From: Eledone cirrhosa | Lineage: Eukaryota | Assembly (NCBI GenBank): GCA_964016885.1 | Contig: OZ024761.1 | Span: forward strand, 31,620,001 to 31,684,000 | Reading direction: 5' to 3' | DNA: 64,000 nt | Part shown: positions 3,968-64,000 of the stretch, one piece after another | Position numbering within the stretch: the first letter of the stretch is position 1 | Layout of the letters: each line of letters opens with the position of its first letter | Made by a program: the position numbers and the translations under genes | Notes under the pieces: model-generated | What the model was told of the DNA's origin: nothing | The model's input: the letters and a program-made list of their open reading frames with translations, nothing else | Databases searched by the model: none

Positions 3968-4462
3968 ATTTAGTTAGTATTAGTATTACTATTACAGTAA
4001 TACAATACAATTTAGTTAGTATTACTATTAGTGCTACTAATACTAACAGTAACAGTTTAGTTAGCATTACTATCAGTACTACTAATACTAAGAGTAATAC
4101 AATAGAGTTTAGTTAGTATTACTATTAATACTACTATTAGTACTACTAATACTAACAGTAATACAGTTTAGTTAGTATTACTATTAGTACTACTATTACT
4201 AACAATAATACAATACAGTTTAGTTAGTATTACTATTATTACTGCTAATACTAACAGTAATACAATAAAGTTTAGTTAGTATTACTATTATTACTAATAT
4301 TACTAACAGTAATACAATACAGTTTAGTTAGTATTACTATTAGTACTACTAATAACAACAGTAACAGTTTAGTTAACATTACTGTTAGTACTACTAATAC
4401 TAACAGTAATACAATGCAGTTTAGTTAGTATTACTATTAGTACTACTAATAATAACAGTAAT
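3968..4462. repeat. ~45-52-bp AT-rich minisatellite (tttagttagtattactattagtactactaatactaacagtaatacaatacag)
   Basis: About 9-10 degenerate copies leading into the 10-bp satellite. Confidence 0.9.
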
Positions 4463-7400: not shown

Positions 7401-10400
7401 TGAAAATACATCGACAATACATAGACATACACAGACAATACACAGACAATACACATAAAATATATAGACAATATATAGACAATACATAAACAATACATAG
7501 ACAATACACAGACAATACATAGACAATACATAGACAATATATAGACAATACACATCAATACATAAACAATACATAGACAATACATAAACAATACATAAAC
7601 AATACATAAACAATACATAGGCAATACATAAACGATGCACAGATAATACATAGACAATACATAGACAATAGACAGACAATACATAGAAAATACATAGACA
7701 ATACATAGACAATACATAAACAATACATAGACAATACAGAGACAATACATAGACAATACATATACAATATATAGACAATACACAGACAATACACAGACAA
7801 TACACAGACAATACATAGATAATACTCATCAATACATAAACAATACATAGACAATACATAAACAATACATAAACAATACATAGGCAATACATAGGCAATA
7901 CATAGACAATACATAGACAATACATAAACAATACACAGACAATACATAGACAATATCCAGACAATTCATAGACAATACATGGACAATACACAGACAATAC
8001 ATAGACAATACATAGACAATACATAAACAATACATAGACGCTAAACAGACAATACATAGACAATACACAGAAAATACATAGACAATACACAGACAATACA
8101 CAGACAATACACAGACAATACATAGACAATACATAGACAATACACAGACAATACACAGACAATACACGGACAATACATAGACAATACATAGACAATAGAT
8201 AGACAATACATAGACAATAGATAGACAATACAAAGACAATACATAGACAATACATAGACAATAAACAGACAATACATAAACAATACACAGACAATACATA
8301 GACAATACATAGATAATTCATAAACAATACACTGACGATACATATACGATACACAGACAATACATAGACAATAAATAGATAATCCACAGACAATGCATAG
8401 ACAATACACTGACAATACACATAGAATACATAGACAATACACAGACAATATATAGAACATACAGAGACAATACACAGACAATATATAGACAATACATAGA
8501 CAATACACAGACAATATATAGAAAATACATAGACAATACACAGACAATATATAGAAAATACATAGAGAATACACAGACAATATATAGAAAATACATACAC
8601 AATACACAGACAATATATAGAAAATACGTAGACAATATATAGACAATACATCGACAATACATAGAAATAATCAGACAATACACATGCAATATATAGACAA
8701 TACATAGACAATACATAGACAATACCCAGACAATACATAGACAATACATAGGCAATACATAGACAATACACAGACAATACATAGACAATACTTAGACAAT
8801 ACACAGACAATACATAGACAATACACATCTATACATAAACAATACATAGAAAATACATAAACAATAAATAAGCAATACATATGCAATACACAGACAATAC
8901 ACAGACAATACACGGACAATACACTGACAATACACAGACAATACACAGACAATACACAGACAATACATAAACAATACACAGACAATACATACACGATACA
9001 TAAACAATATATAGACAATACATACACAATACATATACAATACATAGACAATACATAGACAATACATAGACAATACAAAGACAATACATAGACAATACAT
9101 AGACAATAAACAGACAATACATAAACAATACACAGACAATACATAGACAATACATAGACAATTCATAAACAATTCACTGACAATACATAGACAATACATA
9201 GATCATACATAGACAATACATAGACTATACATAAACAATACATACACAATACATAGACAATACATAAACAATACATAGATAATCCACAGACAATACATAG
9301 ACAGTACACTGACAATACACAGAGAATACATAGACAATACACAGACAATATATAGAAAATACATAGACAATACACAGACAATATATAGACAATACATAGA
9401 CATAATCAGACAATACACAGACAATACACATACAATATATAGACAATACATAGACAATACATAAACAATACATAACAATACATAACAATATATAAACAAT
9501 ACATAGACAATACATAGACAATATATAGACAATACACAGACAATACACAGACAATACATAGGCAATACACATCAATACATAAACAATATATAGAAAATAC
9601 ATACACAATACATAAAAAATAAATAGGAAATACATAGACAATACACAGACAAGACACAGACAATACACAGACAATACACTGACAATACATAAACAATACA
9701 TAAACAATACATAGACAATACAGAGACAATACATATACAATATATAGACAATACACAGACAATACATAGACAATACATAAACAATACATAAACAATACAT
9801 AGGCAATACATAGACAATACATAGACAATACACAGACAATACACAGACAATACATAGACAATACATAGACAATACACAGACAATAAACAGACAAAACATA
9901 AACAATAGATAAACAATACAAAGACAATACATAGACAATATCCAGACAATTCATAGACAATACATGGACAATACACAGACAATACATAGACAATACACAG
10001 ACAATACATAAAATATACATAGACGATACACAGACAATACATAAAAAATACACAGACAATAGATAGACAATATATAGACAATACATAGCCAATATATAGA
10101 CAATACACAGACAATACATAGACAATACACATCAATACATAAACAATACATAGAAAATACATACACGATACATGAACAATACACAGGCAATACATAGACA
10201 ATACACAGACAATATGTAGACAATACATAGACAATACATAGACAATATATAAACAATGCATTGACATTACATAGACAATAGACAAACAATACATTGACAA
10301 TGCACAGACAATACACAGACAATACAGGGACAATACATAAACAATACTTAAACATACATAGACAATACACAGTCAATGTATAGACAATACACAGACAATA

Positions 10401-13400
10401 CATAAACAATATATAGTCAATACATACACAATATATAGACAATACACAGACAATACATAGAAAATACATACACAATACATAGGCAATACATAGACAATAC
10501 ACAGACAATACATAGACAATACACAGACAATACATAGACAATATATAGACAATACACAGACAATACACAGACAATACAAAGACAATACATAAACAATACA
10601 TAGTCAACACACAGACAATACATAGACAATACATATTAATACATAGACAATACGTAGACAATACATAGACAATACACATACAATACATAGACAATACCCT
10701 GACTATACATAGACAATAACCAGACAATACCCAGACAATACCCTGACTATACATAGACAATACGTAGACAATACATAGACAATACACATACAATACATAG
10801 ACAATACCCTGACTATACATAGACAATAACCAGACAATACCCAGACAATACATAGACAATACATAGAAAATACCCAGACAATACATAGACAATACCCAGA
10901 CAATACATAGACAATACAAAAACAATACACAGAGAGTACCCAGACAATACATAGACAATACCCAGACAATACATAGACAATACATAGAATATACATAGAC
11001 AATACACAGACGATACGGGGACAATTCATAAACAATACATAAACAATACATAGAAAATACATAGACAATATATAGACAATACACAGACAATACATAGACA
11101 ATGCACATCAATACATAAACAATACATAGAAAATACATACATAATACATAAACAATACATAGGCAATACATAGACAATACACAGACAATACACAGACAAT
11201 ACACAGACAATACATAGACTATACACAGACAATACATATACAATACATAAAAAATATATAGACAATACATACACAATACATATACAATACGTAGACAATA
11301 CATATACAATACGTAGACAATACAGAAACAATACATAGACAATACAGAAACAATACATAGACAATACAGAAACAATACATAGACAATATATAAACAATAC
11401 ACAGACAATACATAGACAATACACAGACAATACTTAAACAATACTTAGACAATACACAGACAATACACAGAGAATACATAAACAATACATAGACAATACA
11501 CAGACAATACATAGACAAGACACAGTCAATACATAGACAATACATAGACAATACACAGACAATACATAGATAATACATAAACAATACATAGACAATACAT
11601 AGATAATAGACAACTAATACACTGACAATACATAGACATTACATAGACAATACATAGACAATACATAAACAATACACAGTCAATAGATAGACAATATATA
11701 GACAATACATAGACAATACAGAGACAATACACATCAATACATAAGCAATACATAGAAAATACATACACAATACATAAACAATACATAGACGATACACAGA
11801 CAATATGTAGACAATACATAGGCAATACATAGACAATATATAAACAATACATTAACATTACATAGACAATAGACAAACAATACATAGACAATACACAGAC
11901 AATACACAGACAATACAGGGACAATACATAAACAATACATAAACAATACATAGACAATACACAGTCAATGTATAGACAATACACAGACAATACATAGACA
12001 ATACATACACAATATATAGACAATACACAGACAATACATAGACAATACACATCAATAAATAAACAATACATAGAAAATACATACACAATACATAAACAAT
12101 ACACAGACAATACATATCAATACATAGATAATACATAGACAATACACAGACAATACACAGATAATACATAGACAATACCCAGACAATACATAGACAATAC
12201 ATAGACAATACATGGACAATACACAGACAATACATAGACAATACACAGATAATACATAAATTATACAGAGACAATAACCTGGCAATACATAGACAATACA
12301 CAGACAATACATAGACAATACATAAACAATACCTAGACAATACACAGACAATACATAGACAATACCTAGACAATACCTAGACAATACAGGGACAATACAT
12401 AGACAATACACATACAATACACAGACAATACATAGACAATACGTAGACAATACGTAGACAATACATAGACAATACACAAACAATACACAGACAATACACA
12501 AACAATACACAGACAATACACAGACAATACACAGACAATACACAGAAAATAAACAGACAATACACAGACAATACACAGACAATACACAGACAATACACAG
12601 ACAATACACAGAAAATAAACAGACAATACACAGACAATACACAGACAATACACAGACAATACATAGACAATACATAAACAGTACACAGACAATAGATAGA
12701 CAATATAAAGACAATACATAGACAATACACAGACAATACATAGACAATACGAAGACTATACACAGACAATACATAGACAATACATAGACAATACATAGAA
12801 AATACACAGACAATACATAAACAATACACAGACATTTCATAGACAATATACAGACAATACATAGATAATACACAGACAATAAATAAACAATAAATAGACA
12901 ATAAACCGACAATATATAATCAATACACAGACAATACATAAAAAATACGTAGACAATACATAAACAATAAATAGACAAAACATAAACAATAGATAAACAA
13001 TATACATACAATACATAGACAAAACATAAGCAATACATAAACAATACACAGACAATACATAGACAATACATAGACAATACACAGACAATACACAGACATT
13101 ACACAGACAATACATAGACAATACATATACAATACATAGAAAATACATAGACAATACACAGAGAATACATAGACAATAGACAGACACAACATAGACAATA
13201 CATAGACAATAAAGAGACAATACATAGACAATACATAAACAATACATAAACAATACATAGTCAATACACAGACAATACATAGACAATACATATACAATAT
13301 ATAGACAATACACAGACAATACACAGACAATACACAGACAATACACAGACAATACACAGAATACATAGACAATACACAGACAATACATAGACAATAGACA

Positions 13401-16400
13401 GACAATGCATAGACAATACATACACAATACATAAACAATACATACACAATACATAGACAATACACAGACAATACATAGACAATACACAGACAATACATAG
13501 ACAATATATAGACAATACACAGAAAATACACAGAAAATACATAAACAATACACAGACTATAGAGAGACACTACATAGACAATATACAGACAATACACAGA
13601 CAATACAAATACAATACATAAACAATACATAGACAAAGCATATCAGTACATAGACAATACATAGAGAATAAACAGACAATACACATATAATCCATAGACA
13701 ATACAAAGACAATACCTAGACAATAGAGAGACAATACATGGACAATACACAGACAATACACAGACAATACATAGACAATACATTGACAATACACAGATAA
13801 TACATAAATTATACATAGACAATAACCGCACAATACATAGAGAATACAGAGACAATACAGAGACAATACAGAGACAATACACAGACAATACACAGACAAT
13901 ACACAGACAATACATAAACTATACATAGACAATAACCAGACAATACTTAGACAATACACAGACAATACACAGACAATACACAGACAATACATAGACAATA
14001 CATAAACAATACAGAGACAATACATAAACAATACATAGACAATACTTAGACAATACACAGACAATACATAGACAATACACAGACAATACACAGACAATAC
14101 ATAGACAATACATAGACAATACGTAGACAATACATAGACAATACACAAACAATACACAAGCAATACACAAGCAATACACAAACAATACACAGAAAATACA
14201 CAGACAATACACAGACAATACACAGACAATACACAGACAATCCATAGACAATACATAGACAATATATAGACAATACATAAACAGTACGCAGACAATAGAT
14301 AGACAATACATAGACAATACGTAGACAATACACAGACAATACATAAAAATTACATAGACAATACATAGATTATACAAAGACAATTCATAGACAATATACA
14401 GAAAATACATAGACAATACAAAGACAATACATAAGCAATACATTAACAATACACAGACAATACATAGACGATACACAGACAATACACAGACAATACACAG
14501 ACAATACACAGACAATACATAGACAATACACAGACAATAAATAAACAATAAATAGACAATAAACAGACAATACATAGACAATACACAGACATTACCTAAA
14601 AAATACATAGACGATAGACAGTCAATACATAGACAATACATAAACAATACACAGACAATACACAGACAATACATAGACAATACACAGACAATACATAGTC
14701 AATACATAGACAATACATAGACAATACACAGACAATACACAGAAAATACATAGACAATACACAGACAATGCATAAATAATAAACAGACAAAACATAAACA
14801 ATAGATAAACAATACACAGACAATACATAGACAATACCCAGACAATACATAGACAATACATGGACAATACACAGACAATACACAGACAATACGTAAACAA
14901 TACATACAGAATAGACAGACAATACATAGACAATACACAGACAATACATAAACTATACATAGACAATATACAGAAAATACATAGACAATACACAGACAAT
15001 ACACAGACAATACACAGACAATACACGGACAATATACAGACAATAGACAGACAATACACAGACAATACATAGACAATACATAAACAATACACAGACAATA
15101 GATAGACAATATATAGACAATACATAGACAATATATAGACAATACATAGACAATACACATCAATACATAAACATTACATGGAAAATACATACACAATACA
15201 TAAACAATACATAGACAATACATAGACAATACACAGACAACACATAGACAATACACAGAAAATACATAGACAATATATAGACAATACACAGACAATACAT
15301 AAACAATACACAGACTATACAGAGACAATACATAGACAATACACAGACAATTCATAAACAATATACAGACAATACATAGACAATACACAGATAATACAGA
15401 GACAATACATGGACAATACACAGACAATTCATAGACAATAACCAGACAATACATAGACAATACAAATAAAAAGCATAGACAATACATAGACAATTCATAA
15501 ACAATACACAGACAATACATAGACAATACACGGACAATACATAAACTATACATAGAAAATAACCAGACAATACATAGACAATACCTAGACAATACATAGA
15601 CAATACACAGACAATACATAGACAATACACAGACAATACATAGACAATACACAGACAATCACATAAACAATACATAGACAATATATAGACAATACATAGA
15701 CAATACCTAGACAATACACAGACAATACATACACAATACACAGACAATCACATAAACAATACATAGACAATACACAGACAATACACAGACAATACATACA
15801 CAATACACAGACAATATATGAAATATACATAGACAATACATAGAAAATGTATAAACAATACATAGACAGTACGCAGACAATACATAAACAATACTCAGAC
15901 AATACATAGACAATACACAGACAATAAATAGACAATACACAGACAATACACTGACAATACATAGACAATAGATAGACAATACATAGACGATACAAAGACA
16001 ATACATAGACAATACATAGACAGTACACAGACAATAAATAGACAATACACAGACAATACACTGCCAATACATAGAAAATACATAAACAATACATAGACAA
16101 TACATACACAATACAGAGACAATACATAAACAATTCATAGACAATACGCAGACAATACATAGATAATACACAGACAATGCATAGACAATACATAGACAAT
16201 ACACAGACAATACATAGACAATACACAGACAATCACATAAACAATTCATAGACAATACATAGACAATACAGAGACAATACCTAGACAATACATACACAAT
16301 ACATAAACAATACATAGACTATACACATCAATACATAAATGATACATAGACAATACACAGACAATACACAGACAATACATAAACAATACTTAGAGAATAC

Positions 16401-19400
16401 ACAGACAAGACATAGACAATAGACAGACAATAGACAGACAATACATAGAAAATACATCGACAATACATAGACAATACATAGACAATACACAGACAATACA
16501 TGGTCAATACACAGACTATACATATACAATACCCAGACAGTAAACAGACAATACATAGACAATAGATAGACAATACATATACAATACACAGACAATACAC
16601 AGACAATACACAGACAATACATGGACAATACACACAAAATACATTGACGATACATAGACAATACATAAATAATACATAGACAATAAACAGACAATACATA
16701 GGCAAAACATAGACGATACACAGACAATACACAGACAATACTCAGACAATACACAGACAATACATAGACAATACATAGACAATACACAGTCAATACATAA
16801 AAGATACACAGACAATAGATAGACAATACACAGACAATACACAGACAATACACAGACGATACACAGACAATACACAGACAATACACAAACAACACAGACA
16901 ATACGTAGACAATACAGAGACAATACATAAACAATACATACGCAATACGTAGACAATACACAGAAAATACACAGACAATACATAAACAATACATAGACAA
17001 TACATAAACACTACACAGACAATACATAGAGAATACACAGACAATACATAAACAATACATAGAAAATGCATAGACAATACATAGACAATAAATAGACAAT
17101 AGACAAACAATACATAAACAATACCCAGACTATACATAGGCAATACATAACAATACATAGAGAATACAAGAACAATACATAGCCAATACATACACAATAC
17201 ATAGACAATACAAAGACAATACGTAGACAATACATAGACAATACACAGATCATACATTAAACAATACATAGACAATACACAGACAATACATAGACAATAG
17301 ACAGACAATACATATACAATACATAGACTATACATAGACAATACACAGACAATTGATAGACAATATACTGACAATATATTGACAATACATAGACAATACA
17401 CAGACAATACACAGACAATACATAGACAATACACAGACAATACACATACAATACACAGACAATACACAGACAATACATAGACAATACACAGACAATACAT
17501 AGACAATACAAAGACAATACATAGACAATACATAGACAATACATAGTAAATACATAGACAATACATAAATAATACATAGACAATACACAGACAATACATA
17601 AACGATACACAGACAATACACAGACAATACACAGACAATACATAAACAATACACAGACAATACACAGACAATTCATAGACAATATACAGACAATACATAT
17701 AAAATACAAAGACAATACACAGACAATACACAGACAATACACAGCCAATACACTGACAATACACAGAAAATACATAGACAATACATAAACAATACATAGA
17801 CAATAAAAGACAATACATAAACAATACATAAACAATACATAAACAATACATAAACAATACATAGACGATACATAAACAATACATAGACAATACACAGACG
17901 ATACACAGAAAATACATAAACAATACATAGACAATACATAGACAATACACAGACAATACATAGACGATACACAGAAAATACATAAACAATACAGAGACAA
18001 TACTCAGACAATAAATAAACAATACATAAACAATACATAAACAATAGATAGACGATACATAAACAATACATAGACAATACACAGACAATATATATACAAT
18101 ACACAGACAATACAGAGACAATACGTAGACAATACACAGACAATACATAGACAATAGACAGACAATACATATACAATACACAGACAATACACAGACAATA
18201 CATAGACAATACACAGATAATACACAGACAATACATAGACAATACATAGACAATACATAGACAATACATAAACAATACATAAACAATACATAGACAATTC
18301 ATAAACAATACACAGACAATACATAGACAATACACAGACAATACACAGACAATACATAGACAATACATAGACAATGCATAAACAATACATAGACAATACA
18401 TAACCAATACATAGACAATACACAGACAATACATAAACGATACACAGACAATACATAGACAATACACAGACAATACATAGACAATACACAGACAATACAT
18501 AAACGATACACAGACAATACATAGACGATACACAGACAATTCATAGACAATACATAAACAATACATAGACAATAAACAGACAATACATAGGCAATACACG
18601 GACAATACATAGACAATACGTAGACAATACACAGACAATACATAGACACTAGACAGACAATATATATACAATACACAGACAATACATAGACAATACACAG
18701 ACAATACACAGACAATACATAGACAATACACAGACAATATATAGACAATACATAGACAATACATAGACAATACATAAACAATCCATAGACAATACACAGA
18801 CAATACATATACAATACACAGACAATACATAGACAATACACAGACAATACACAGACAATACACAGACAATACATAGACAATACATAGACAATACATAAAC
18901 AATACATAGACAATACATAACCAATACATAGACAATACACAGACAATACATAAACAATACACAGACAATACATAGACGATACACAGACAATTCATAGACA
19001 ATATACAGACAATACATATAAAATACACAGACAATAGACAGACAATACATGGACAATACACAGAAAATACATAAACAATACATAGACAATAAACAGACAA
19101 TACATAGGCAATACACAGACAATACATAGACAATACGTAGACAATACACAGACAATACATAGACAATAGACAGACAATACATATACAATACACAGACAAT
19201 ACATAGACAATACACAGACAATACATAGACAATACACAGACAATATATAGACAATACATAGACAATACATAAACAATACATAGACAATACACAGACAATA
19301 CATATACAATACACAGACAATACATAGACAATACACAGATAATACACAGACAATACATAGACAATACATAAACAATACTTAGGCAATACATAAACAATAC

Positions 19401-20850
19401 ATAGACAATACATAGACAATACACAGACAATACACAGACAATACACAGACAATACACAGACAATACACAGACAATACACAGACAATACACAGATAATACA
19501 CAGTTAATACACAGACAATACATAGACAATACATAGACAATACACAGACAATACATTGAGAATACATAGACAATACACAGACTATACACAGACAAAACAC
19601 AGACAATATATAAACAATACACAGACAATACACAGACAATACATAGATAATACACAGACAATACACAGACATTACATAAACAATACATAGACAATACACA
19701 GACAATACATAGACAATACACAGACAATACACAGACAATACATAGACAATACATAGACAATACACAGACAATACATAGATAATACATAAACAATACACAG
19801 ACAATACACAGACAATACATAGACAATACACAGACAATACACAGACAATACATAGGCAATACACAGACAATACAAAGACAATACATAGACAATACACAGA
19901 CAATACATAGACAATACACAGACAATACACAGACAATACATAGACAATACACAGACAATACACAGACAATACACAGACAATACACAGACAATACATAGAC
20001 AATACATAGACAATGCATAAACAATACTTAGGCAATACACAGTCACACATATAGACAATACACAGACAATACATAGACAATACATAGACAATACATAGAC
20101 AATATATAAACAATACTTAGGCAATACACAATCACACATATAGACAATACACGGACAATACATAGACAATACACGGACAATACACACACAATACACAGAC
20201 AATACACAGACAATACACAGACAATACATAGACAATACACAGACAATACATAGACAATACACAGACAATACATAGACAATACATAAACAATACTTAGGCA
20301 ATACACAATGACACATATAGACAATACACAGACAATACACAGACAATACATAGACAATACGTAGGCAATACACAATCACACATATAGACAATACACAGAC
20401 AATACACAGACAATACACAGATAATACACAGGCAATACATAAACAATACATAGGCAATACACAGACAATACAAAGACAATACATAGACAATACATAGACA
20501 ATACACAGACAATACATAGACAATACACAGACAATACATAGACAATACACAGACAATACATAGACAATACACAGACAATACACAGACAATACACAGACAA
20601 TACACAGACAATACACAGACAATACATAGACAATACATAGACAATACATAAACAATACTTAGGCAATACACAATCACACATATAGACAATACACAGACAA
20701 TACACAGACAATACACAGGCAATACATAAACAATACATAGACAATACACAGACAACACATAGACAATACACAGACAATACACAGACAACACATAGACAAT
20801 ACATAAACAATACTTTGGCAATACACAATCACACATATAGACAACACACA
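4460..20850. repeat. ~16.4-kb satellite of a 10-bp unit, ACAATACA(C/T)AG-type (GACAATACAY A), ~1600 copies
   Basis: Direct reading: gacaatacata/gacaatacaca registers throughout, with frequent point variants. It is the source of all CIVYVLSMYCL-type ORFs. Confidence 0.98.
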
Positions 20851-21319
20851 CAGAGAAGTGTCCATTATGTCTGCATTGTCAACCTGACCTTTTTATATAG
20901 ACAAGACGTCTATACGGTGTCAGCCTGACCCGAGTGTATATAATGATGCTATTTAGTGAATCTATTTAACCTATCTAGATACGTTAAACAATTGTTAAAC
21001 ACCTATTGTTTCTGTAACGCAGGTGTGGGGTGGTGACACTGAGTGGAGTCGTGGTTTGTCGTGTTGGTGGTGGTGGCGATGGCGGCGGTGATACAGTTGA
21101 CGTTTCACCGCTACCATGACTACCAATGTGTTTTTTTTTACCAAACTCAAGAGACACTGTTGACGTCCTTCCGCTACAACGTTATTTTTTCAAAGACGAG
21201 GTTAAACTTTGCCTTTCATCCTTACGGGTTCGATAAAATAAAGTACCTGTAATGTACTGAGTAATTGGTGACCTTTTGCCAAAATTAGAAACAGTTATTT
21301 TTTCAAATACATAATTTTT

Positions 21320-33991: not shown

Positions 33992-34377
33992 CCAGCCAGC
34001 ACTGATGTAAAATATATAGTAGCAAAACTGTTAGATTAATAAGCAACACGGGGTTAATTAATCGGATACATTATAATTTATATGTTTTAAAATGGCGTTA
34101 TTTCTTTAATCCCATTACGGCTAAATTATCAATAAGATAGGTAAGTGGAAATATCTATTGTTGGGGGGTGGGGGATCCCGGCTTATTTAAGCTTGTTTAA
34201 GAGACTGCGTTTGATTTAAGAGTACTAACACATACAATCACATATACACACTCACACACACACATATATTCATATATATGTATATATATATTCATATATA
34301 TGTATATATATATTCATATATATATATATATATATTCATATTTCTGTATATATATATATTCATATATATATATATGT

Positions 34378-35878
34378 ACATGTCTGGTGGAGTGTATTTT
34401 GGTTAGCTGTCCGCGTAGAGAAGGACCTGAGTGGGCCAGTTGGATATCTAGTCCCTCTCGTCTGATAGCTCTGCGGATGGCTGTTGTTGTTTCGTCACTG
34501 AAGTGTGGGAGCTTCAGGAAGCAAGTGTTAGTGCCTCGGGTGTGGTGTCCTCTGTTCTTTCTGGCACGGTTTGTGGCGGATGTCATGTATCCGTTCAGTT
34601 TGAGTACTTCCAGGAAATGTGTGGTGTGTGTGTCTCGGTCTCTAGCGTCGGTGCATTTGTTCCGGATACGTGTTAGTTCGTTCCTTATGTATCCGAACTT
34701 AGCGCCGGCTGGGAGGGCCGATCTGAAATATACGAACAGGTCCCTGCTGGCGGCTTTTTTATAGAAGCAGGTGTGGATGTTGCCTTCCTCTGTTACCCTG
34801 AGTTGGAAGTCCAGTAGGGATAGGGATCCGCGGTCATCGGGGTGTTCCATGCTGAACTTTATACTGGCGTCCATGCTGGAGAATGTTGTGTATATTTTAT
34901 CTGCCTCCTCACGGGATGATGTAAGGATGTGTATGTCATATACATATCGGGTGAAGAAGGTATAGGAATGGCAGGTGTTGAGGGCTCGGCATTCTAGCTG
35001 GTTCATGTAGGTGATGGTCAGCAGGCCCGATAGGCTGGATCCCATGGGTAATCCTGTTGTCTGTCTGTATGTGCGGTGGTGGAAGGTGAAGTACGTGTTG
35101 TCTACTGTGAAGGACAAAAACTGGTGTATGTCCGTCGGGTGGAGGCCGTAGCAGTGGATGTCCTCTGCGACCACGCAGTCCGTCAATAAATCGACAGCTG
35201 GATGAGCGGGGACTGTAGTGTAGGGGGAGACAACGTCGAGGCTAAAGGCGTATCTATTTAGTTTAAGTTGTTCTGGCTGCAGTTGGTGTAGTCTACGTAT
35301 AACTTCGTCGGAGCTACTGACATGCCCGGGAAAGGTGGAGAGTAGAGGCTTGAGTACCTGGGAGAGGAGCCAGGAAATTTTGTATAGGGGTCCTCTATGC
35401 TAGAGACGATGGGTCTTATTTGCGTCTTAGTACTATTCTTGTGGGTCTTGATGAGGTCGTAGAAAGTGGGCAGTCTGCTATTTCTAGTGGTGTAGTTGAG
35501 CTTAACTTTATTTGGGAGTTGTCTTCTCCTACAGATATCGAACCAGATGGAGTTGGTCTGTTTTTCGATCTGGGCTGCAGTCATGCCCGGGATCTCTCTA
35601 TATAGTTCATTGTCGCTTAGGTGTTCAAAGGCTAGGTTGTTGTATGTGGCTTGAGAGATGACGCAAAACTCTTTACCTTTGTCGGATGGTAAGTATATAA
35701 GTTCCCTATTCCGTAGGTTCTACAGGGTGAGTTGTTGTGTCCTGGAGAGGTTTGGAGCTATCTTCTTCTGTTTCCGTAAGATGTTAAATACGGAATGTTT
35801 TAGCCTCGAGAGTTTTTCTTCAAGCTCGCGTTTGGCAGGCGGTGGACAGAGTGGGCGATCCAGTTGGTATATCGGGAA
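34378..35878 (-). mobile_element. Degenerate Penelope-like element RT fragment (different clade from the 55-57 kb element)
   Basis: Frameshifted minus-strand pieces: [75 protein letters not shown] (YVDD decayed), IKFSMEH..LSLLDF, FLKLPHFSD. Both ends dissolve into (TA)n/(TTCATA)n. Confidence 0.88.
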
Positions 35879-52123: not shown

Positions 52124-52177
52124 ACGTTTGTAAAATTGTGTTGCATGAGAGTGAAATTTTTCAAAAAGAAGTTTGAG
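52124..52177 (+). CDS. Voltage-gated proton channel (Hv family, Hv3-like), exon encoding end of S2 and the S2-S3 linker (TFVKLCCMRVKFFKKKFE)
   Basis: Strong acceptor (ttttgtttttttcttctttttcag) and donor (GAG|gtaagg). 54 nt, phase 0/0. Peptide aligns by eye with human Hv1 IIFKLFVFRLEFFHHKFE and joins in frame to the next exon. Confidence 0.9.
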
Positions 52178-52236
52178 GTAAGGGTTCGTTTTCTTTCTAT
52201 TCAATTTGAAAAATTTGATGTCGTCTTTGTTTAAAG

Positions 52237-53384
52237 CAGAGGTCGGCATCTTCATTGCCTCCACGGGCCGGACCGAGTATTAATGACGGATAGGGGGCCG
52301 GACGAAGGCCATAAAAGAATAATTATGGAAAATTACACAAGCTAAAATTTAATCACGACTGTTAACACTTAAAAATAATTTATATTAACCACAGATGAAT
52401 GTAGTAATGCGACGAATTTTTAATTGTGTTTTTGCTGACAAAGGTTTCACATCCGGTTAGTGGTGGACATTAGGTGGAGTGAATCAGTGGTGGTGTGGTG
52501 GACATTAGGTAGAGTAAATCAGTGGTGGTGTGGTGGACATTAGGTGGAGTGAATCAGTGGTGGTGGACATTAGGTGGAGTGAATCAGTGGTGGTGGACAT
52601 TAGGTGGAGTGAATCAGTGGTGGTTTGGTGGACATTAGGTAGAGTAAATCAGTGGTGGTGTGGTGGACATTAGGTGGAGTGAATCAGTGGTGGTGTGGTG
52701 GACATTAGGTGGAGTGAATCAGTGGTGGTGTGGTGGACATTGGGTGGAGTGAATCAGTGGTGGTGTGGTGGACATTAGGTAGAGTGAATCAGTGGTTGTG
52801 TGGTGGACATTAGGTGGAGTAAATCAGTGGTGGTGTGGTGGACATTAGGTGGAGTGGATCAGTGGTGGTGTGGTGGACATTAGGTGGAGTGGATCAGTGG
52901 TGGTGGACATTAGGTAGAGTGAATCAGTGGTGGTGTGGTGGATATTAGGTAGAGTGGATCAGTGGTGGTGTGGTGGACATTAGGTAGAGTGGATCAGTGG
53001 TGGTGTGGTGGATATTAGGTAGAGTGGATCAGTGGTGGTGTGGTGGACATTAGGTGGAGTGAATCAGTGGTGGTGTGGTGGACATTAGGTAGATCGGATC
53101 AGTGGTGGTGTGGTGGACATTAGGTGGAGTGAATCAGTGGTGGTGTGGTGGACATTAGGTGGAGTGAATCAGTGGTGGTGTGGTGGACATTAGGTGGAGT
53201 GAATCAGAAGATTTGTGGAAGAATGTAACAGCGGGACTTTTACTGTATTCGAAAGTCTCGTCTCTCATATTACAATAAATTTAAATTTTAAATAAACAAC
53301 TCATTGGACATTAGTTCTCGCGAACCGGTCAAAATCCCTTCGCGGGCCGCATCCGAGCCGCGGGTTGTAGGTTGCCGACCCCTG
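52237..53384. mobile_element. Non-autonomous hAT (Charlie-like) element carrying a minisatellite
   Basis: TIRs cagaggtcggca / tgccgacccctg, subterminal gggccg motifs, 8-bp TSD gtttaaag / gtttaagg (7 of 8 match). Confidence 0.85.
52459..53207. repeat. 35-bp (with 30-bp variant) minisatellite tggtggacattaggtggagtgaatcagtggtggtg, ~22 copies
   Basis: Direct reading. Confidence 0.95.
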
Positions 53385-53469
53385 GTTTAAGGGAAAGTGG
53401 TTTGATTTGAGACGATATATTAAAATTAAAACAGCCACATCGTGGAAAAACACAAATAAAAACTGGTAA

Positions 53470-53890
53470 TAGTGGTTTCTGATATAAGTACAAGGTCAAC
53501 ACTTTTAGGAGAGGGGAAAGTCGATTAAATAGACCCCAGTATGTTACTGGTACTTTATTTTATAGAATCATTATTATAATAATTGTTTCTACTTTTGGCT
53601 CAAGGCCAGCAATTATCCAATGTTTTACTGGCACTTTATTTTATCGACCCCGTAAGAATGAAAGGCAAAGTTAACCTCGGCGTCAAAGCATGGCGTCCGA
53701 CCCTCCACCAATACTGCCAATCCACCGAATCCTTATTATAGTAAGCAATTATCCCACTGTTACTTTATTTTATCGACCCCGTAAGGATGAAAGGCAAAGT
53801 TAACCTCGGCGGGATTTGAGCTCAGATCATAAATGGTAAATGGCCATAACTCTATCCGACCCTCCACCGATACTGCCAATCCACCGCCCT
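53470..53890 (-). mobile_element. Cluster of three SINE copies or fragments immediately upstream of the S3-S4 exon
   Basis: Three occurrences of (t)actttattttat. Two complete heads ending ctgccaatccaccg at ~53727 and ~53887. Confidence 0.78.
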
Positions 53891-53924
53891 AACAATTATT
53901 ATAATAATTATTATTATTTTGCAG

Positions 53925-54063
53925 GTTTTTGATGCGTTTATTGTGATCGCTTCTTTCGCCCTGGATTTTGTGTTCCTGGACAGCCAATGGTATGAGACGG
54001 GTAAAGATGCAAGTACTATTCTGGTTTTGTTGCTCCCTTGGCGCGTCGTTCGGATAGTAAACA
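53925..54063 (+). CDS. Hv channel exon encoding S3-S4 (VFDAFIVIASFALDFVFLDSQWYETGKDASTILVLLLPWRVVRIVN)
   Basis: ttattttgcag acceptor, A|gtaagt donor, 139 nt (phase 0/1). Matches Hv1 S3 (ILDAVVVVVSFILD) and S4 (LLILLRLWRVARIIN), with Leu-Pro in place of Arg-Leu (LPWRVVRIVN). Confidence 0.95.
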
Positions 54064-54292
54064 GTAAGTGAAACATACAGCGTCTCTTGTTGTTGTTACA
54101 CACTCGTGTGTGTGTGTTTATGTCTGTGTATATATATAATACTTTTCTCTTTCCCTTCATCTACCTACATATTTATCTATCTTTCTGGCAACCAATCAAT
54201 CTATCTTTCTATCTATCTACCTAATCATTTATCTCTCTCTCTATATATATATATATAATATAAGATCAAAAGATGGTTAAAAGAGTTCCAAG

Positions 54293-54363
54293 TATTTTAT
54301 TATGCGCATTTCAAAAACAAATATCATCATGAGATGATATCTGCGTTTTCATCAGATAAAATA
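54293..54363 (-). ncRNA. Minimal type I hammerhead ribozyme in PLE pLTR (intact core)
   Basis: Reverse complement: UAUUUUAU-CUGAUGA-long stem II (GAUAUCAUC/GAUGAUAUU)-GAAA-UGCGCA(palindrome)-UA-AUAAAAUA. Stem I is 8 bp. Confidence 0.88.
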
Positions 54364-55510
54364 GGGATACATGATATGAAGGTTAAAAAACACTTGTGAA
54401 TAGTGAAGTTTTAAATCAACATATGAAAAATAATTTAAGATTGATGTATGAGATTGGGAAAAAGTGATGGGGGTGGAAAAGGTAAGGAAGAGGAGGAGAT
54501 GAGAGTAAAGAATGGTGGGGAGGAGTATAAGAAGGAAGGATGAGAGAGGAGGAGAGATGGGTGATAGAGAGAGAGAGATAGCCTTTACAACTGAGAAAAA
54601 TATATATTGTCTCACAGAGAGAAGTTAAAAAGCCGTTGGAAGATAATAGATAATTTAAAAGAATTTGAAATTAAAAGTTGATGAAGAGAAAAAAAGGGGT
54701 TAAGAATAATATTAAATTAAGGTTTGTATATTGAAGGGTTTAATAATATGTGCGAGGAAAAGAAATTGTTAATATGTATTATTAAAATAAAAATATTAAT
54801 GTTATTAAGGATATAATGTGAACAGAAGTAGAAGTGTGGATGAGTTATGAATTTAGAGGAATTAGTTAGTGTTTAAGTTTGTTTTTATGTAATGTAATAT
54901 GTGTGCGTAATATATGTAAATAGTTTGTTTAAAAATGAGCGCAGAAAGCAAAGAAGAAAAGAATGTTTAAGGAAGAAAATATTTAACATCAAAATATATA
55001 TGTTTACGAAATATTTTCTAATGGTAATAATATAATATATTAAAGGAAATTAGTTAGGGTTTAAGTTTGTTTTTATGTATTGTAATATGTAAAAGTCAAA
55101 CGAGCATGAAAGGAAGAGATAAGGAACTTAAGGAAGAAAAATCTAACGTCAAAAAATGTTTGTTTACGAAGGACTATTAAAGGTAATACTATAATGTATT
55201 TAAAAGATAGTAATAATTTTTATGGCCAATGATATGAAGAAAGATGGAAGAGTGGATATGTTGTGGTGTGTAATAATAAGAATTGAGAAGTAGTTAGGAA
55301 GAAAAAGTACAGATTAGAGGTTAGAAATTACAAAGAGAAAGAAAAGAGGAAGAAAGGAAAGTGATAAAGAGGAATGATATTGAATGAGTAACTTGTATTA
55401 TATAATATATAATAAATAATATTGAAATAAGGTAGAAAGATGGGTATATTTTAATAAAATATATATAAGCCTTTGAGAAAAAGGATTTTAAACTAGTAAA
55501 GTATTAGATA

Positions 55511-57019
55511 TTAGCTGTATACTTTATGGAATGTTCTGTGGAATTTATGCAAGCAGAGAGAAAATAAATCAGTGCGTCTATTTATTATAGAATCTAAATT
55601 AGATATAATGGTAAATTTCTCAGATAGGCAAAGATTACACGTTCTGGATAGGGAGGCATTCAAGTAGGGAGAGGCAGAACAAACTTTCCTCCAAAGGATG
55701 TTATAGTTAATATTTTTGTCTTTCAAGGACCATATGAGTTCTGAGAGTGCCGTGTTAGTTCTTTTAAGTTGGTATCTAAAAGACGAATCGTGATGATAAA
55801 ATCTCACTTTGAATGAGGTGGAAGTGGAACCGAAATAGGTAAAGGAATTGGTATCAGTTATAACCTTACATTCATAGACTAAGTTTTTTTCAAGACAATG
55901 GTTATTGAGAGGACATTTAGTCTTAACAGGGCAATTACAATTGCGATTAGAGAAATTAACAGAGTTATTAACAAGTGACCTAGTGTTATGTATAGGAGGA
56001 ATTGGATTGGAGAAGTTATTTACGATAGGAATAATAGTTTCCTGATTTAGATTGGTATTATGAACATTCAACGAAGTTACGTTTGACGTCGTATTTGAGT
56101 TTGCAGAATCTAGCCTAGAGTTAACAATGACGTCGGGAGTACTACTGCTATTATTATGACACTTAGTGTTGGAAGGATGTGATTTAATATTTAATATTTT
56201 ATTGTTGTGTTTAGAGATAATGTTGGAGATGTTGGTGGAATAGGAAAAGTTTATTGTATGTTTGTTAAATATTTTACTATAGATATGTGAGGGAGGGAAG
56301 CATTTATCTAAGGCCCTAAAGAATAGTTTAGGAATATTATTATTAATAGAAATATAGAAAGGAGCATTATACCAGATTATATTTTTGTATCTAGGTCTTT
56401 TATTTAAGTTATTGGAATGATCATAATTAATTATTTTACTGTAAGACCTTCTAGGATTGGTTTCTTTATTGTATTTAATTTTATCAGGATAACCGGCTTT
56501 AGAAAGCGCATTATTATAGTAATTGGCGTTAGCATCAAAGATATTTTTATTAGAGGATAGGTTTGAGATTCTTTTTCCAATATTACTAACTATAGCATTT
56601 TTAATGTTAGTGGGATGGTTAGATTTAAAATTAACATAATTTAGATTCTCATTGTTTTTATGGTAAGGGTATTATAGGCCAGTGTCAAGATTAAGGGATA
56701 TATCCAAGAAGTTAGCTAGTTTGACGTTGTTATCAAATTCGATTTTAAGGTTATGTTGCTTAAAGAGATCACGTATATTGTTCTTAATAATATTAAGGTT
56801 AACTAAATTGCAATTTAAGATAGTAAAAAGTCCATTGTCACGATAAATTCCACCGCGAAGTTGAGGAATTATCCGATTTAAAGAATTCAAAATAAAAATA
56901 CCAATCAAATCAGTCAATTGCGATGAATCAGAAGCACCCATTGTGATATCAAAGTTGTTGGAGGTATCAGCTCTAGTCCAGTATTCATTGTTGAATTCTA
57001 AGATGGTTTTTCCTCGCAC
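55511..57019 (-). pseudogene. PLE RT-thumb-GIY-YIG ORF remnant (Naiad-like)
   Basis: My translation gives one continuous frame broken only by TAA at 56672-56674. Motifs: FDITMGASDSSQLTDLIG, GIYRDNGL (YRDD degenerated to YRDN), FLDISLNL, SNHP, IIWYNAPF..KCFPPSH..KIFNKHT, CNCPVKTKCPL (CxCx5C), VYEC..YFGST..FKVRFYHH, CNLCLSEK. Confidence 0.9.
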
Positions 57020-57409
57020 ATATTATTAAACCCTTCAATATACAAACCTTAATTTAATATTATTCTTAACCCCTTTTTCTCTTCATCAACTTTTAATTTC
57101 AAATTCTTTTAAATTATCTATTATCTTCCAACGGCTTTTTAACTTCTCTCTGTGAGACAATATATATTTTTCTCAGTTGTAAAAGCTCTCTCTCTCTCTA
57201 TCACCCATCTCTCCTCCTCTCTCATCCTTCCTTCTTATACTCCTCCCCCGCCATTCTTTACTGTCATCTCCTCCTCTTCCTTACCCTTTCCAACCGCCCC
57301 CTCCCTCACTTTTTCCCAATATCACACATCAATCTTAAATTATTTTTCATATGTTGATTTAAAACTTCACTATTCACAAGTGTTTTTTAACCTTCATATC
57401 ATGTATCCC

Positions 57410-57480
57410 TATTTTATCTGATGAAAACGCAGATATCATCCCATGATGATATTTGTTTTTGAAATGCGCAAAATAAAATA
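57410..57480 (+). ncRNA. Hammerhead copy in inverted pLTR, cleavage triplet mutated (UA to AA)
   Basis: tattttat-ctgatga-...-gaaa-tgcgca-aa-ataaaata. Same as the 54.3 kb copy except for loss of the conserved U16.1 and one loop base. Confidence 0.75.
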
Positions 57481-57605
57481 CTTGGAATTCTTTTAACCAT
57501 CTTTTGATCTTATATTATTTATACTCCAGTCCTACAAACTGTAGAGTGCTACTTATCCGATATTTGCATTGTTTTATTGTGCTACAATAAAACTCACCTC
57601 CTACA

Positions 57606-57650
<45 letters not shown>

Positions 57651-57846
57651 AAATAAATGTAATCTGAGTTTTTCGAATATTAATAATAATATTCGATTCG
57701 TTTGCAATTGTGTAGACAGCCCCCTTTTTAAAGCCATGTCAGTAGAATGAGCCCCTCATTCCTGCTCCTGTGTTGGCATGTAAACAGAACTGTAGACACC
57801 AATGTTTCTGGATATCACCCTTCATCAGTGCAGTTCACCTGCCAAC

Positions 57847-57890
<44 letters not shown>

Positions 57891-57939
57891 GCCTGTAACT
57901 ATCGACCTCTCTACCTAACTATTTATCTATCTACCCTCC

Positions 57940-58425
57940 TTCAAAAACGATGGAGAGGCCGTTTTCCTATGTGTTATGGCTATGGTGAAAAAGGTTATAT
58001 GGTGGACTAGGTTAAAAGGACTGAGGTCAGACACCTTTCTCTCCGGCGAGCAACTGATTCGTTTTTTTAAATATCATTTTGGAAGAAGAATCAGGATGGA
58101 GAGAGAGGTGCTGTACCCCAGCAAATTTTATAAAAGGTGGGTGAATGTGGCAAAGATGGCCCGAGTGGTTGGGCCTTCTCTCTATATGTAGGTTGAGGAA
58201 AAAGAGGAAGAGAGGAAGGGAGTACTCACTCTTGGAGCTCCTGGAGATGAGTGTAGTACATTTTTTCGAGGTGTGTACAACCCCTGTGTAACGCCTTCCC
58301 CCTATTGGGGATTTCAATTGTTATTTGTTATTTTATTAATAGTTTTATTTTCATATACCTGTATATAAACTCCCCATTTGTATTTGTCCCCTTATTTTGT
58401 GTCCTTGTGGCTAATAAAGAAATCT
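57940..58425 (+). mobile_element. 3' end of an L1/Tx1-like LINE
   Basis: ORF end MAMVKKVIWWTRLKG...FYKRWVNV* resembles the Tx1 ORF2 C-terminus. T-rich 3' UTR ending AATAAAGAAA, then (TCTA)n. Confidence 0.55.
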
Positions 58426-58447
58426 ATCTATCTATCCATCTATCCAG

Positions 58448-58563
58448 GTTTCCTTATGACTGTCAACAGGAAACACCACATAGAAATAATGACTGTAAGA
58501 AAATCCAAGAAGAAAGCAGACATGAAAATCATTAAATTACAGGCACTGATAAACGAAATCACA
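58448..58563 (+). CDS. Hv channel exon, post-S4 and coiled-coil-like region (S)FLMTVNRKHHIEIMTVRKSKKKADMKIIKLQALINEIT
   Basis: ctatccag acceptor, ACA|gtaagt donor, 116 nt. Phase 1/0 is compatible with the previous exon (A+GT=Ser). Open frame with an amphipathic helical pattern, as expected after S4. Confidence 0.85.
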
Positions 58564-58597
58564 GTAAGTAGTCGGAATTGAAACATTCATTAGGACT

Positions 58598-59612
58598 AAC
58601 ACTACTGTACTATACTGTACTGTACTATACTGTACTGTACTATACTGTACTGTACTGTACTGTACTACATTATACTATACTGTACTGTACTGTACTATAC
58701 TATACTGTACTCTACTTACTGTACTGTACTGTACTGTACTGTACTGTACTACATTATACTATACTGTACTATACTGTACTGTACTATACTGTACTGTACT
58801 GTACTATACTATACTGTACTCTACTGCATTGTACTGTACTGTACTGTACTGTACTGTACTACATTATACTATACTGTACTATACTGTACTACATTATACT
58901 ATACTGTACTATTATATCATACAACACTATACTATACTACATTACACTATATTACACCACACTAGAGTACACTACACAATACTATACTATAATAGACTAT
59001 ACTGTATTATACTTCACTACACTGTACTACACAACACTATACTATATCATACTACACTATAATACACTACACTATACTACACTACACTATGATATTCCAC
59101 GTTACACTATACTGTACTACACTACACTACACCATTCTACACCATTCTACACCATACTACACTCTACTACACCATACTACACCATATTACACCATACTAC
59201 ACTATACTACACTATACTACACTATACTACACTATACTACACTACACTACACTATACTATACTATACTATACTACACTATACTACACTATACTACACTAC
59301 ACTACACTATACTATACTACATTATACTGTACTATACTACACTACACTCCACTACACTCCACAACACCACACTACACCACACTACACTATACTCCACAAC
59401 GCCACACTACACCACACTACACTACACTCAACAACACTACACAACACCACACCACACCACACCACACTACACTACACTACACAACACCACACCACACCAC
59501 ACCACACCACACCACACCACACCACACCACACCACACCACACCACACCACACCACACCACACCACACCACACCACACTTCACCAAACCACACTACACCAC
59601 ACTAAACTACTC
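58598..59612. repeat. Pentanucleotide array grading CTGTA/CTATA to CTACA to CCACA
   Basis: Direct reading. Fills the intron between the third and fourth visible Hv exons. Confidence 0.95.
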
Positions 59613-59643
59613 TACATTCACGTATATTTTCCTTTTCTTCCAG

Positions 59644-59716
59644 CGAGATGTAGAGTTACTTGTAGCGCTAAGCAGAAGCCGCGGAGCCCCGGAGCATGAA
59701 ATAACTGCGTGTCTTT
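59644..59716 (+). CDS. Hv channel exon, C-terminal region RDVELLVALSRSRGAPEHEITACL
   Basis: ttttccttttcttccag acceptor, T|gtaagt donor, 73 nt, phase 0/1, in frame with the previous exon. Complex-sequence island between two satellites. Confidence 0.75.
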
Positions 59717-59929
59717 GTAAGTATTTTACAGACGAAACTTTATTGAATTCAGACAGAAGAACCAAATTGATTGGCCGAGTCGTTAAAACAGAGGTTCTTA
59801 AAGGGGTCGTAATAAATACCACAAGGCACTTTGTACAATATTTTAATTATTCAGCCAATCCACTCTGTCGTTTGTTCTTTAATGTTTTGAATCTTTTTAG
59901 TCTTTTTTTTTTCTTGTAAATGTGTTTCG

Positions 59930-62900
59930 CTACACCACACTACACTACAATACACTACACGACACTGCACTACACTACACTACACCATACCATACTACAC
60001 AACACTACACTACACTACACTACATTACACAACACCATACCACACCACACTACATTACACAACACCATACCACACCACACTACATCACACTACACTACAA
60101 TATACTACACTGCACTCCACTCCATTACACTACACCACAATACACCACACTACTCTATACGATACTACACTATAATATACCACACTACAATATACTACAC
60201 TGTTCTACAACACATCACACTACACAACAATATACTACACTGCTCTACATTACACCACACTACACTACAATATACTACACCACACTACACCATATTACAC
60301 TACACTACAATATACTACACTGCTCTACATTACACCACACTACAGAACAATATACTACACTGCTCTACATTACACCACACTACACAACAATATACTACAC
60401 TGCTCTACACCACATCACACTACACTACAATATACTACATCACACTACACCACATCACACTACACTACAATATACTACACCACACTACACCACATCACAC
60501 TACACTACAATATACTACACTGCTCTACATTACACCACCCTACACTACAATATACTACACTGCACTACACCACATCACACTACACTACAATATACTACAG
60601 TGCTCTACATCACACTACACTACAATATACTACACTGCACTACACCACATCACACTACACTACAATATACTACACTGCTCTACATTACACCACCCTACAC
60701 TACAATATACTACACTGCTCTACACCACATCACACTACACTACAATATACTACACTGCTCTACATTACACCACACTACACAACAATATACTACACTGCTC
60801 TACATTACACCACACTACACAACAATATACTACACTGCTCTACACCACATCACACTACACTACAATATACTACACTGCTCTACATTACACCACACTACAC
60901 TACAATATACTACACTGCTCTACACCACATCACACTACACTACAATATACTACACTGCTCTACATTACATCACACTACACAACAATATACTACACTGCTC
61001 TACATTACACCACACTACACTACAATATACTACACTGCTCTACATTACAACACACTACACTACAATATACTACACTGCTCTACAGCACATCACACTACAC
61101 TACAATATACTACACTGCTCTACATTACATCACACTACACAACAATATACTACACTGCTCTACACCACATCACACTACACTACAATATACTACACTGCTC
61201 TACACCACATCACACTACACTACAATATACTACACTGCTCTACATTACATCACACTTCACAACAATATACTACACTGCTCTACACCACATCACACTACAC
61301 TACAATATACTACACTGCTCTACACCACATCACACTACACTACAATATACTACACTGCTCTACATTACACCACACAACACTACAATATACTACACTGCTC
61401 TACACCACATCACACTACACTACAATATACTACACTGCTCTACACCACATCACACTACACTACAATATACTACACTGCTCTACATTACACCACACTACAC
61501 AACAATATACTACACTGCTCTACATTACACCACACTACACTACAATATACTACACTGCTCTACATTACACCACACTACACTACAATATACTACATTGCAC
61601 TACACCACATCACACTACACTACAATATTCTACACTGCTCTACATTACACAACACTACACTACAATATACTACACCACACTACACCACATCACACTACAC
61701 TACAATATACTACACTGCTCTACATTACACCACACTACACTACAATATACTACACTGCTCTACATTACACCACACTACACTACAATATACTATACTGCAC
61801 TACACCATATCACACTACACTACAATATACTACACTGCTCTACATTACACTACACTACAATATACTACACTGCTCTACATTACACCACACTACACTACAA
61901 TATACTACACTGCACTACACCACATCACACTACACTACAATATACTACACTGCTCTACATTACACCACACTACACTACAATATACTACACTGCTCTACAT
62001 TACACCACACAACACTACAATATACTACACTGCTCTACACCACATCACACTACACTACAATATACTACACTGCTCTACACCACATCACACTACACTACAA
62101 TATACTACACTGCTCTACATTACACCACACTACACAACAATATACTACACTGCTCTACATTACACCACACTACACTACAATATACTACACTGCTCTACAT
62201 TACACCACACTACACTACAATATACTACATTGCACTACACCACATCACACTACACTACAATATTCTACACTGCTCTACATTACACAACACTACACTACAA
62301 TATACTACATCACACTACACCACATCACACTACACTACAATATACTACACCACACTACACCACATCACACTACACTACAATATACTACACTGCTCTACAT
62401 TACACCACCCTACACTACAATATACTACACTGCACTACACCACATCACACTACACTACAATATACTACAGTGCTCTACATCCCACTACACTACAATATAC
62501 TACACTGCACTACACCACATCACACTACACTACAATATACTACACTGCTCTACATTACACCACCCTACACTACAATATACTACACTGCTCTACACCACAT
62601 CACACTACACTACAATATACTACACTGCTCTACATTACACCACACTACACAACAATATACTACACTGCTCTACATTACACCACACTACACAACAATATAC
62701 TACACTGCTCTACACCACATCACACTACACTACAATATACTACACTGCTCTACATTACACCACACTACACTACAATATACTACACTGCTCTACACCACAT
62801 CACACTACACTACAATATACTACACTGCTCTACATTACATCACACTACACAACAATATACTACACTGCTCTACATTACACCACACTACACTACAATATAC

Positions 62901-64000
62901 TACACTGCTCTACATTACACCACACTACACTACAATATACTACACTGCTCTACAGCACATCACACTACACTACAATATACTACACTGCTCTACATTACAT
63001 CACACTACACAACAATATACTACACTGCTCTACACCACATCACACTACACTACAATATACTACACTGCTCTACACCACATCACACTACACTACAATATAC
63101 TACACTGCTCTACATTACATCACACTTCACAACAATATACTACACTGCTCTACACCACATCACACTACACTACAATATACTACACTGCTCTACACCACAT
63201 CACACTACACTACAATATACTACACTGCTCTACATTACACCACACAACACTACAATATACTACACTGCTCTACACCACATCACACTACACTACAATATAC
63301 TACACTGCTCTACACCACATCACACTACACTACAATATACTACACTGCTCTACATTACACCACACTACACAACAATATACTACACTGCTCTACATTACAC
63401 CACACTACACTACAATATACTACACTGCTCTACATTACACCACACTACACTACAATATACTACATTGCACTACACCACATCACACTACACTACAATATTC
63501 TACACTGCTCTACATTACACAACACTACACTACAATATACTACACCACACTACACCACATCACACTACACTACAATATACTACACTGCTCTACATTACAC
63601 CACACTACACTACAATATACTACACTGCTCTACATTACACCACACTACACTACAATATACTATACTGCACTACACCACATCACACTACACTACAATATAC
63701 TACACTGCTCTACATTACACTACACTACAATATACTACACTGCTCTACATTACACCACACTACACTACAATATACTACACTGCACTACACCACATCACAC
63801 TACACTACAATATACTACACTGCTCTACATTACACCACACTACACTACAATATACTACACTGCTCTACATTACACCACACAACACTACAATATACTACAC
63901 TGCTCTACACCACATCACACTACACTACAATATACTACACTGCTCTACACCACATCACACTACACTACAATATACTACACTGCTCTACATTACACCACAC
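59930..64000. repeat. 40-bp satellite (cacactacactacaatatactacactgctctacattacac) built from 5-mers, running off the window end
   Basis: Direct reading. Diagnostic variants recur at a 1870-bp offset. Confidence 0.97.

Follow-up and report, generated by a model that had tools for sequence, protein, structure and literature searches.

A candidate voltage-gated proton channel of the unconventional molluscan type with a glutamate filter in the octopod Eledone cirrhosa

Exon structure of the locus

The stretch of 64,000 nucleotides from Eledone cirrhosa analysed here (the window; contig OZ024761.1 of assembly GCA_964016885.1, G000:C22:31620001-31684000 in our numbering of this 3.0-Gb genome) contains the central part of a gene for a predicted voltage-gated proton channel (Hv) with an LPWRxxR sensor in the fourth membrane helix (S4). 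Four exons, named A to D (Table 1), are each bordered by an AG acceptor and a GT donor, and join in a single stop-free frame to a peptide of 127 residues. An earlier annotation made from the letters alone (the sequence-only reading) had proposed this chain of phase-compatible exons and the same peptide, and the splice sites, the open frame and the protein matches bear it out. All four exons are shorter than the 90-residue length of the open reading frame list, and hence were not seen there; tandem repeats make up 58% of the window.

In tblastn searches mollusc proteins align to the four exons in order (85-92% for exon B), and with the abalone (Haliotis) orthologue P0004 the joined peptide reaches a score of 494, compared with at most 67 in 200 shuffles. 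The exon B search returned 14 proteins among 25 candidates at 85-93% identity, those with a species name coming from gastropods or bivalves only, and exon B alone retrieved both Hv1 structures of the PDB (E = 0.003 and 0.005). Over the S3-S4 region of this exon, 43 of 46 residues are identical to the abalone, Solemya and Babylonia orthologues. No Pfam domain was called on the single exons, but this is uninformative, since the orthologues P0004 and P0005 escape Pfam too.

Splicing was examined by a read comparison covering exon B with short flanks, and so concerns the B-C junction only. In all three RNA-type runs, from three organisms and three studies, contigs leave exon B at the donor site and pass directly into exon C, of which they show the first 30 bases; the RNA type is a program's guess, and none of the matching runs listed is recorded as RNA. 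In a fourth run the contig carries on from exon B into the intron. The B-C junction of the sequence-only reading is therefore supported by contigs of three organisms, under this presumed RNA label. All five listed base differences of the contigs are synonymous and in third positions, and one contig extends 1502 bases 5' of exon B, which is long enough to hold exon A and the loop exon as well as part of the S1 exon.

The exons on either side were located by searching the genome with P0004. Neither S1 nor the main S2 exon was found inside the window by tblastn of 14 homologues, and the remark of the sequence-only reading that S1 is not visible here was right, the S1 exon lying 58 kb upstream. 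Only one S1-like exon was found when 22 homologues were searched over 254 kb. Judged from order, phase and homology, the upstream exons would belong with those of the window: the seven exons agree in all phases and give an open frame of 833 residues, and full-length orthologues carry the filter Glu and the rest of the protein in one chain. The intron between the S1 exon and the loop exon measures 13.8 kb and contains a 200-N gap. The region is present a second time on another contig, C508, where long collinear blocks are 93-99% alike and the exons of the window are identical; a second haplotype is the simplest explanation.

Table 1. Exons of the gene and other features of the window. Positions are those of the window unless contig C22 is named.
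Feature	Position	Strand	Content
S1 exon	C22:31562115-31562239	+	Glu at the human D112 position; equivalents of E119 and D123
1343-bp exon	C22:31576049-31577391	+	most of the S1-S2 loop (about 425 residues) and most of S2; Met at the F150 position, E153
Intron part	1-52123	+	in-window portion of the 94.7-kb intron before exon A
Exon A	52124-52177	+	end of S2 and S2-S3 linker
Exon B	53925-54063	+	S3 (equivalents of D174 and D185), S3-S4 loop, S4 with LPWRxxRxxN; donor confirmed by contigs
Exon C	58448-58563	+	post-S4 helix, predicted coiled-coil region; acceptor confirmed by contigs
Exon D	59644-59716	+	end of post-S4 helix
Intron part	59717-64000	+	in-window portion of the intron after exon D
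650-bp exon	C22:31685481-31686130	+	conserved hydrophobic helix, acidic tract, poly-Ala, conserved C-terminal blocks; GT donor at its end
Mobile element, intron B-C	54250-57523		inverted terminal repeats of about 516 bp (about 54250-54761 and 57008-57523), 95.6% alike
Frames inside the intron B-C element	55511-57022	-	interrupted by a stop; no Pfam match
Reverse-transcriptase frame in the 95-kb intron	34314-35719	-	Pfam RVT_1, E = 2e-10; broken into pieces
Degenerate microsatellite and minisatellite arrays	4000-20900, 52459-53208, 58600-59605, 59950-64000		give spurious long open reading frames

Family membership and phylogeny

The best PDB matches of the family profile are human Hv1 (5OQK, E = 6e-24) and mouse Hv1 (E = 6e-21), and no voltage-sensing phosphatase (VSP) appears in this search below E = 0.01. 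Hydropathy peaks fall at S1 to S4, and the profile aligns to S1 and S2-S4 of Hv1, in agreement with four helices and no pore domain. Chaves et al. (PMC10911540; this and the other papers cited were accessible in part, and are cited for those parts) recognise Hv candidates by four transmembrane helices, an Asp or Glu in S1, a Trp in S4 and at least two Arg, all of which are found here (the Glu, W207, R208 and R211). The protein lacks the combination of RxWRxxR/K and Phe150 of the conventional Hv1, Hv2 and Hv4, having LPWRVVR and Met150 instead, and displays the features of the broad unconventional Hv3 type, namely xPWRxxR, a very large S1-S2 loop and a large intracellular domain (PMC10377628). 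A VSP is contradicted by the Glu and the S4 Trp, and Pfam gives no phosphatase match in P0004 and P0005. In TMEM266 the filter position is occupied by a non-acidic residue, and the predicted acidic filter of the window protein argues against membership in that family; among the sequences collected here no vertebrate TMEM266 was recognised.

For the phylogeny, an IQ-TREE tree was calculated from 50 hand-picked rows and 193 columns, without TMEM266 and the Aplysia sequence XM_013090418, beside a FastTree survey of 212 rows, 57 of which were left out for being partial. The window protein falls inside the PW clade (support 93/90) and groups with nine Glu-bearing proteins of gastropods, Solemya and heterodont bivalves (93/89). 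This position and the Hv1 match uphold the assignment by the sequence-only reading to a molluscan unconventional Hv whose LPWRxxR sensor lacks the first arginine (R1). The Glu clade and an Asp-bearing scallop sister are joined with support 100/97; the sister, P0102 of Argopecten, is a long branch. Members of the Glu clade named from oysters, mussels or scallops were not found in limited searches.

The sequence-only reading had stated that molluscs possess an expanded Hv family, in which Aplysia Hv3 (AcHv3) has LPWRxxR and leaks protons when closed, which is confirmed in print (PMC10377628, PMC10911540). It went on to propose a cephalopod AcHv3 orthologue, to be recognised by the S1 selectivity Asp, and here we disagree. 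LPWRxxR and the long S1-S2 loop are indeed common to both proteins, but the window protein has Glu in S1, and AcHv3 (P0107, LOC101855857) sits in a separate 18-row clade (100/99). A tree in which the window protein is forced to group with AcHv3 and the three proteins nearest to the latter, a group picked after the tree was seen, is worse by 132 log-likelihood units and is rejected (approximately unbiased test, p = 1e-45). Moreover, Aplysia owns a matching gene of its own, and an octopod gene on contig C3, with Asp in the filter, lies on the AcHv3 side of the tree, although not as its direct sister. Orthology to AcHv3 is thus highly improbable.

By eye, the putative Aplysia counterpart of the window gene is XM_013090418 (LOC101852977), with a Glu-filter S1, near-identical S3-S4 and post-S4 regions and the same loop flanks, while its loop differs in length and content; its close gastropod relatives in the tree are P0009, P0010 and P0014. 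A 2023 review lists this sequence in its supplement as a putative Hv, without remark on its Glu in the part accessible (PMC10377628). As it shares the Glu-bearing S1 and the near-identical S3-S4, and stands beside AcHv3, Aplysia would have both genes. The Glu clade appears to be pan-molluscan and separate from AcHv3, comprising an octopod, gastropods, a protobranch and heterodont bivalves.

Filter, gasket and other protein features

In the profile alignment to human Hv1, the best match of solved structure, Glu falls on D112 and Met on F150, while V109, E119, D123, H140, E153, D174, I177, V178, D185, W207, R208, R211 and N214 are kept. The S4 motif LPWRVVR places Leu-Pro at positions 205-206, so that R1 (R205) is gone and two S4 arginines are left. 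Compared with the human channel, the protein can thus be summarised as D112E, F150M, R205L and Pro at 206, with an S1-S2 loop enlarged from about 10 to about 425 residues. All 12 clade members whose S1 was seen have Glu at the D112 position. Of the 109 PW-type rows with an S1 residue (isoforms included), 96 have Asp and 13 have Glu, and of the latter one, a Solemya paralogue, belongs to a different clade. Phe150 is found in all 44 RxW rows and in none of the 105 PW rows that have a residue at this position. The sequence-only reading had expected Asp in S1 and had counted its absence as a refutation; the residue is indeed missing, but a proton channel is not thereby refuted, because either Asp or Glu is an accepted filter.

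The S1-S2 loop consists of Ser, Thr or Asn for 42%, has 21 N-glycosylation sequons and conserved flanks, and ranges across the clade from 165 to 596 residues. S1 is identical at 28-32 of 43 positions to the best gastropod and Solemya rows. At least 280 residues follow S4, including an additional, moderately hydrophobic helix (1.66) past the coil, modelled with low confidence. An AlphaFold model of the abalone orthologue is confident over S1 to S4, with a predicted local distance difference test score (pLDDT) of about 85-95, and over an unbroken helix that runs from S4 into the coil, whereas the loop centre and the tail are of low confidence (mean pLDDT 64). Eight of ten orthologues examined end in TQV(T/S)(Y/H)L, a sequence that fits a class I PDZ-binding motif.

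Two other channels are instructive for comparison. AcHv3 (XM_005094218; PMC10911540) resembles the window protein in LPWRxxR, the lack of R1, a residue other than Phe at 150, the long S1-S2 loop and the post-S4 coil, but has an Asp filter, Thr instead of Val at V109 and Leu instead of Met at F150, with identities of only 21/46 in S3-S4 and 18/41 in S1. EtHv1 of Extatosoma tiaratum (PMC8804609) has a natural Glu filter and keeps H+ selectivity, but this channel is small and canonical, has a typical S4 sensor and carries F101 in its gasket. We infer that the Glu of EtHv1 and that of the mollusc clade arose separately.

Proposed function and alternatives

Our preferred reading, to which we assign a probability of about one half, is that the voltage-sensor protein forms an H+-selective channel whose opening depends shallowly on voltage, so that at rest it is partly open. 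Proton selectivity by itself is probable, because the natural Glu of the insect EtHv1 keeps H+ selectivity, as do D-to-E mutants; in that channel and in these mutants activation is also faster and at more negative voltages (PMC8804609, PMC10377628). AcHv3, with the same LPWRxxR, is H+-selective, changes its conductance e-fold per about 60 mV and leaks; its authors favour the motif as the cause of the shallow gating, leave the cause of the leak open between S4 and gasket, and consider intracellular membranes as the probable site (PMC10911540). If the window protein is proton-selective, it would probably be weakly gated or leaky. The filter Glu would pair with the first remaining Arg to form a protonatable filter, the loss of R1 and the proline kink would lower the gating charge as in AcHv3, the Asp-to-Glu change would shift opening to more negative voltages, and the post-S4 helix would dimerise the channel. 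Such a channel would provide a slow proton conductance driven by the pH gradient, and not a sharply gated acid extruder. The suggestion of the sequence-only reading that this is a candidate leak channel stands as far as the shared S4 motif goes; it was extrapolated from a paralogue with a more degraded gasket, and the leak is the less certain part, because the hydrophobic gasket is better kept here than in AcHv3.

Several observations weigh against the preferred reading. The recorded channel, AcHv3, is by its low identity a distant paralogue, and no recording of the Glu clade appeared in the literature searched, which largely excluded subscription papers. Human Hv1 is leak-free when either F150A or V109T is introduced singly, and leaks with double gasket changes (PMC6754559, Table 1), while single Arg-to-Ala changes are also leak-free, as discussed in PMC10911540. 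Val109, Ile177 and Val178 are kept in the window protein, whereas AcHv3 has Thr109 and Leu150. A fold search with the abalone orthologue model gave nothing at E <= 0.001 and only weak voltage-sensor matches, headed by a non-significant one to Ci-VSP (E = 0.07). With regard to the gene itself, the S1 exon is joined across the 95-kb intron by inference and not by RNA, homologue searches upstream found no earlier N-terminal exon, and the last exon, sought through the 12-residue conserved stretch in which the orthologues end, was not found by a motif search, by a score scan reaching about 106 kb downstream and through 50 kb of C508, or by a genome-wide degenerate pattern. The missing last exon is no sign of absence, because the contig ends 104 kb past the last exon found.

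The gasket evidence is also what would speak for a proton-selective channel that closes properly, in which two arginines give reduced but real gating and no leak in the closed state. V109, I177 and V178 are kept and Met is still hydrophobic; hydrophobicity, not size, sets activation at position 150, where in human Hv1 F150 couples to R2, R3 and D112 (PMC9646954); the leak-free single changes point the same way, and AcHv3 carries V109T in addition. The shared LPWRxxR, blamed for shallow gating in AcHv3 (PMC10911540), leads us to regard this possibility as unlikely. The F150M change alone was also considered as the cause of a leak, and was dropped given the leak-free F150A. We also find it unlikely that the protein is a voltage sensor that barely conducts or does not conduct at all, acting like TMEM266 as a regulatory subunit, receptor or scaffold through its glycosylated loop and S3-S4 loop. 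Such a role could account for an S3-S4 loop that is nearly invariant from octopod to gastropods beside an S1-S2 loop of such variable length, for the TQV(T/S)(Y/H)L ending of the orthologues (the octopod last exon was not found), and for a combination of Glu, Met150 and Pro of which the literature searched held no recording. However, the acidic filter is present in every clade member whose S1 was seen, whereas the non-conducting Ci-VSP has neither the acidic residue nor the Trp, and AcHv3, which had also been suspected not to conduct, proved to do so (PMC10377628). Finally, the unfound end exons, and protein searches that returned no named octopod protein of the window gene, might suggest a pseudogene or a chance exon chain, but a seven-exon open frame, B-C splicing in three organisms, exclusively synonymous differences and identical exons in C508 make this exceedingly improbable.

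Beyond the partly open proton channel that we favour, one may speculate about a conserved mollusc Hv subfamily that unites Glu filter, two-Arg proline-kinked sensor, Met150 and mucin-like loop, and is gated mainly by pH or by something that binds the conserved extracellular loops, instead of voltage. Nature would here offer a first test of how filter length, R1 loss and F150 loss act together; we consider this proposal unlikely.

Paralogues, other phyla and mobile elements

The genome has five Hv genes, two conventional ones (C20 and C4) and three of PW type, i.e. the window gene, that on C3 and one at 31.12 Mb of C22. The latter (G000:C22:31103000-31126754, minus strand) lies about 550 kb from the window gene on the same contig, and corresponds to P0093 of O. 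vulgaris and, as judged by eye, to Aplysia XM_013086351, within a clade having an Asp filter and Gln at E119; a search of the 80 kb upstream of its S4 exon did not reveal its S1 exon. An exon of one paralogue is 96% identical to Octopus proteins. On the AcHv3 side, P0028 (O. bimaculoides LOC106869300) aligns with Gly in place of E153 and with Cys in place of V109, which may be real or an effect of the gene model.

LPWR is also found in S4 of annelid (Owenia P0022, P0101, P0104) and nemertean (Tubulanus P0088) proteins. The review supplement itself includes a nemertean sequence with LPWR, yet the review describes the proline as missing in these phyla (PMC10377628), and the S4 proline may be older than stated there.

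Of the mobile elements in the window (Table 1), the one in intron B-C has frames that by eye resemble those of a Penelope-type retroelement, with a reverse-transcriptase part and a GIY-YIG part.

Significance

The broad unconventional Hv family has already been described, with up to eight members per bivalve (PMC10377628), and the window gene is, in our view, a Glu-filter variant of this type, with its Aplysia counterpart already listed, and not a new kind of system. In the literature searched, within the scope given above, there was no remark on a Glu filter in a molluscan Hv, and F150 or phenylalanine is mentioned nowhere in the main text of the AcHv3 paper (PMC10911540). According to the 2023 review, AcHv3 is the only xPWRxxR channel and EtHv1 the only natural Glu-filter channel with recordings (PMC10377628). 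The Glu clade has both features, together with a gasket that is better kept than in AcHv3, and recording it would therefore separate the two explanations of the AcHv3 leak, the S4 motif and the breached gasket. The absence of Phe150 from all examined PW-type proteins and the Thr of AcHv3 at V109 indicate specific residues to examine. For cephalopods, the five Hv genes of this genome compare with four listed for O. bimaculoides.

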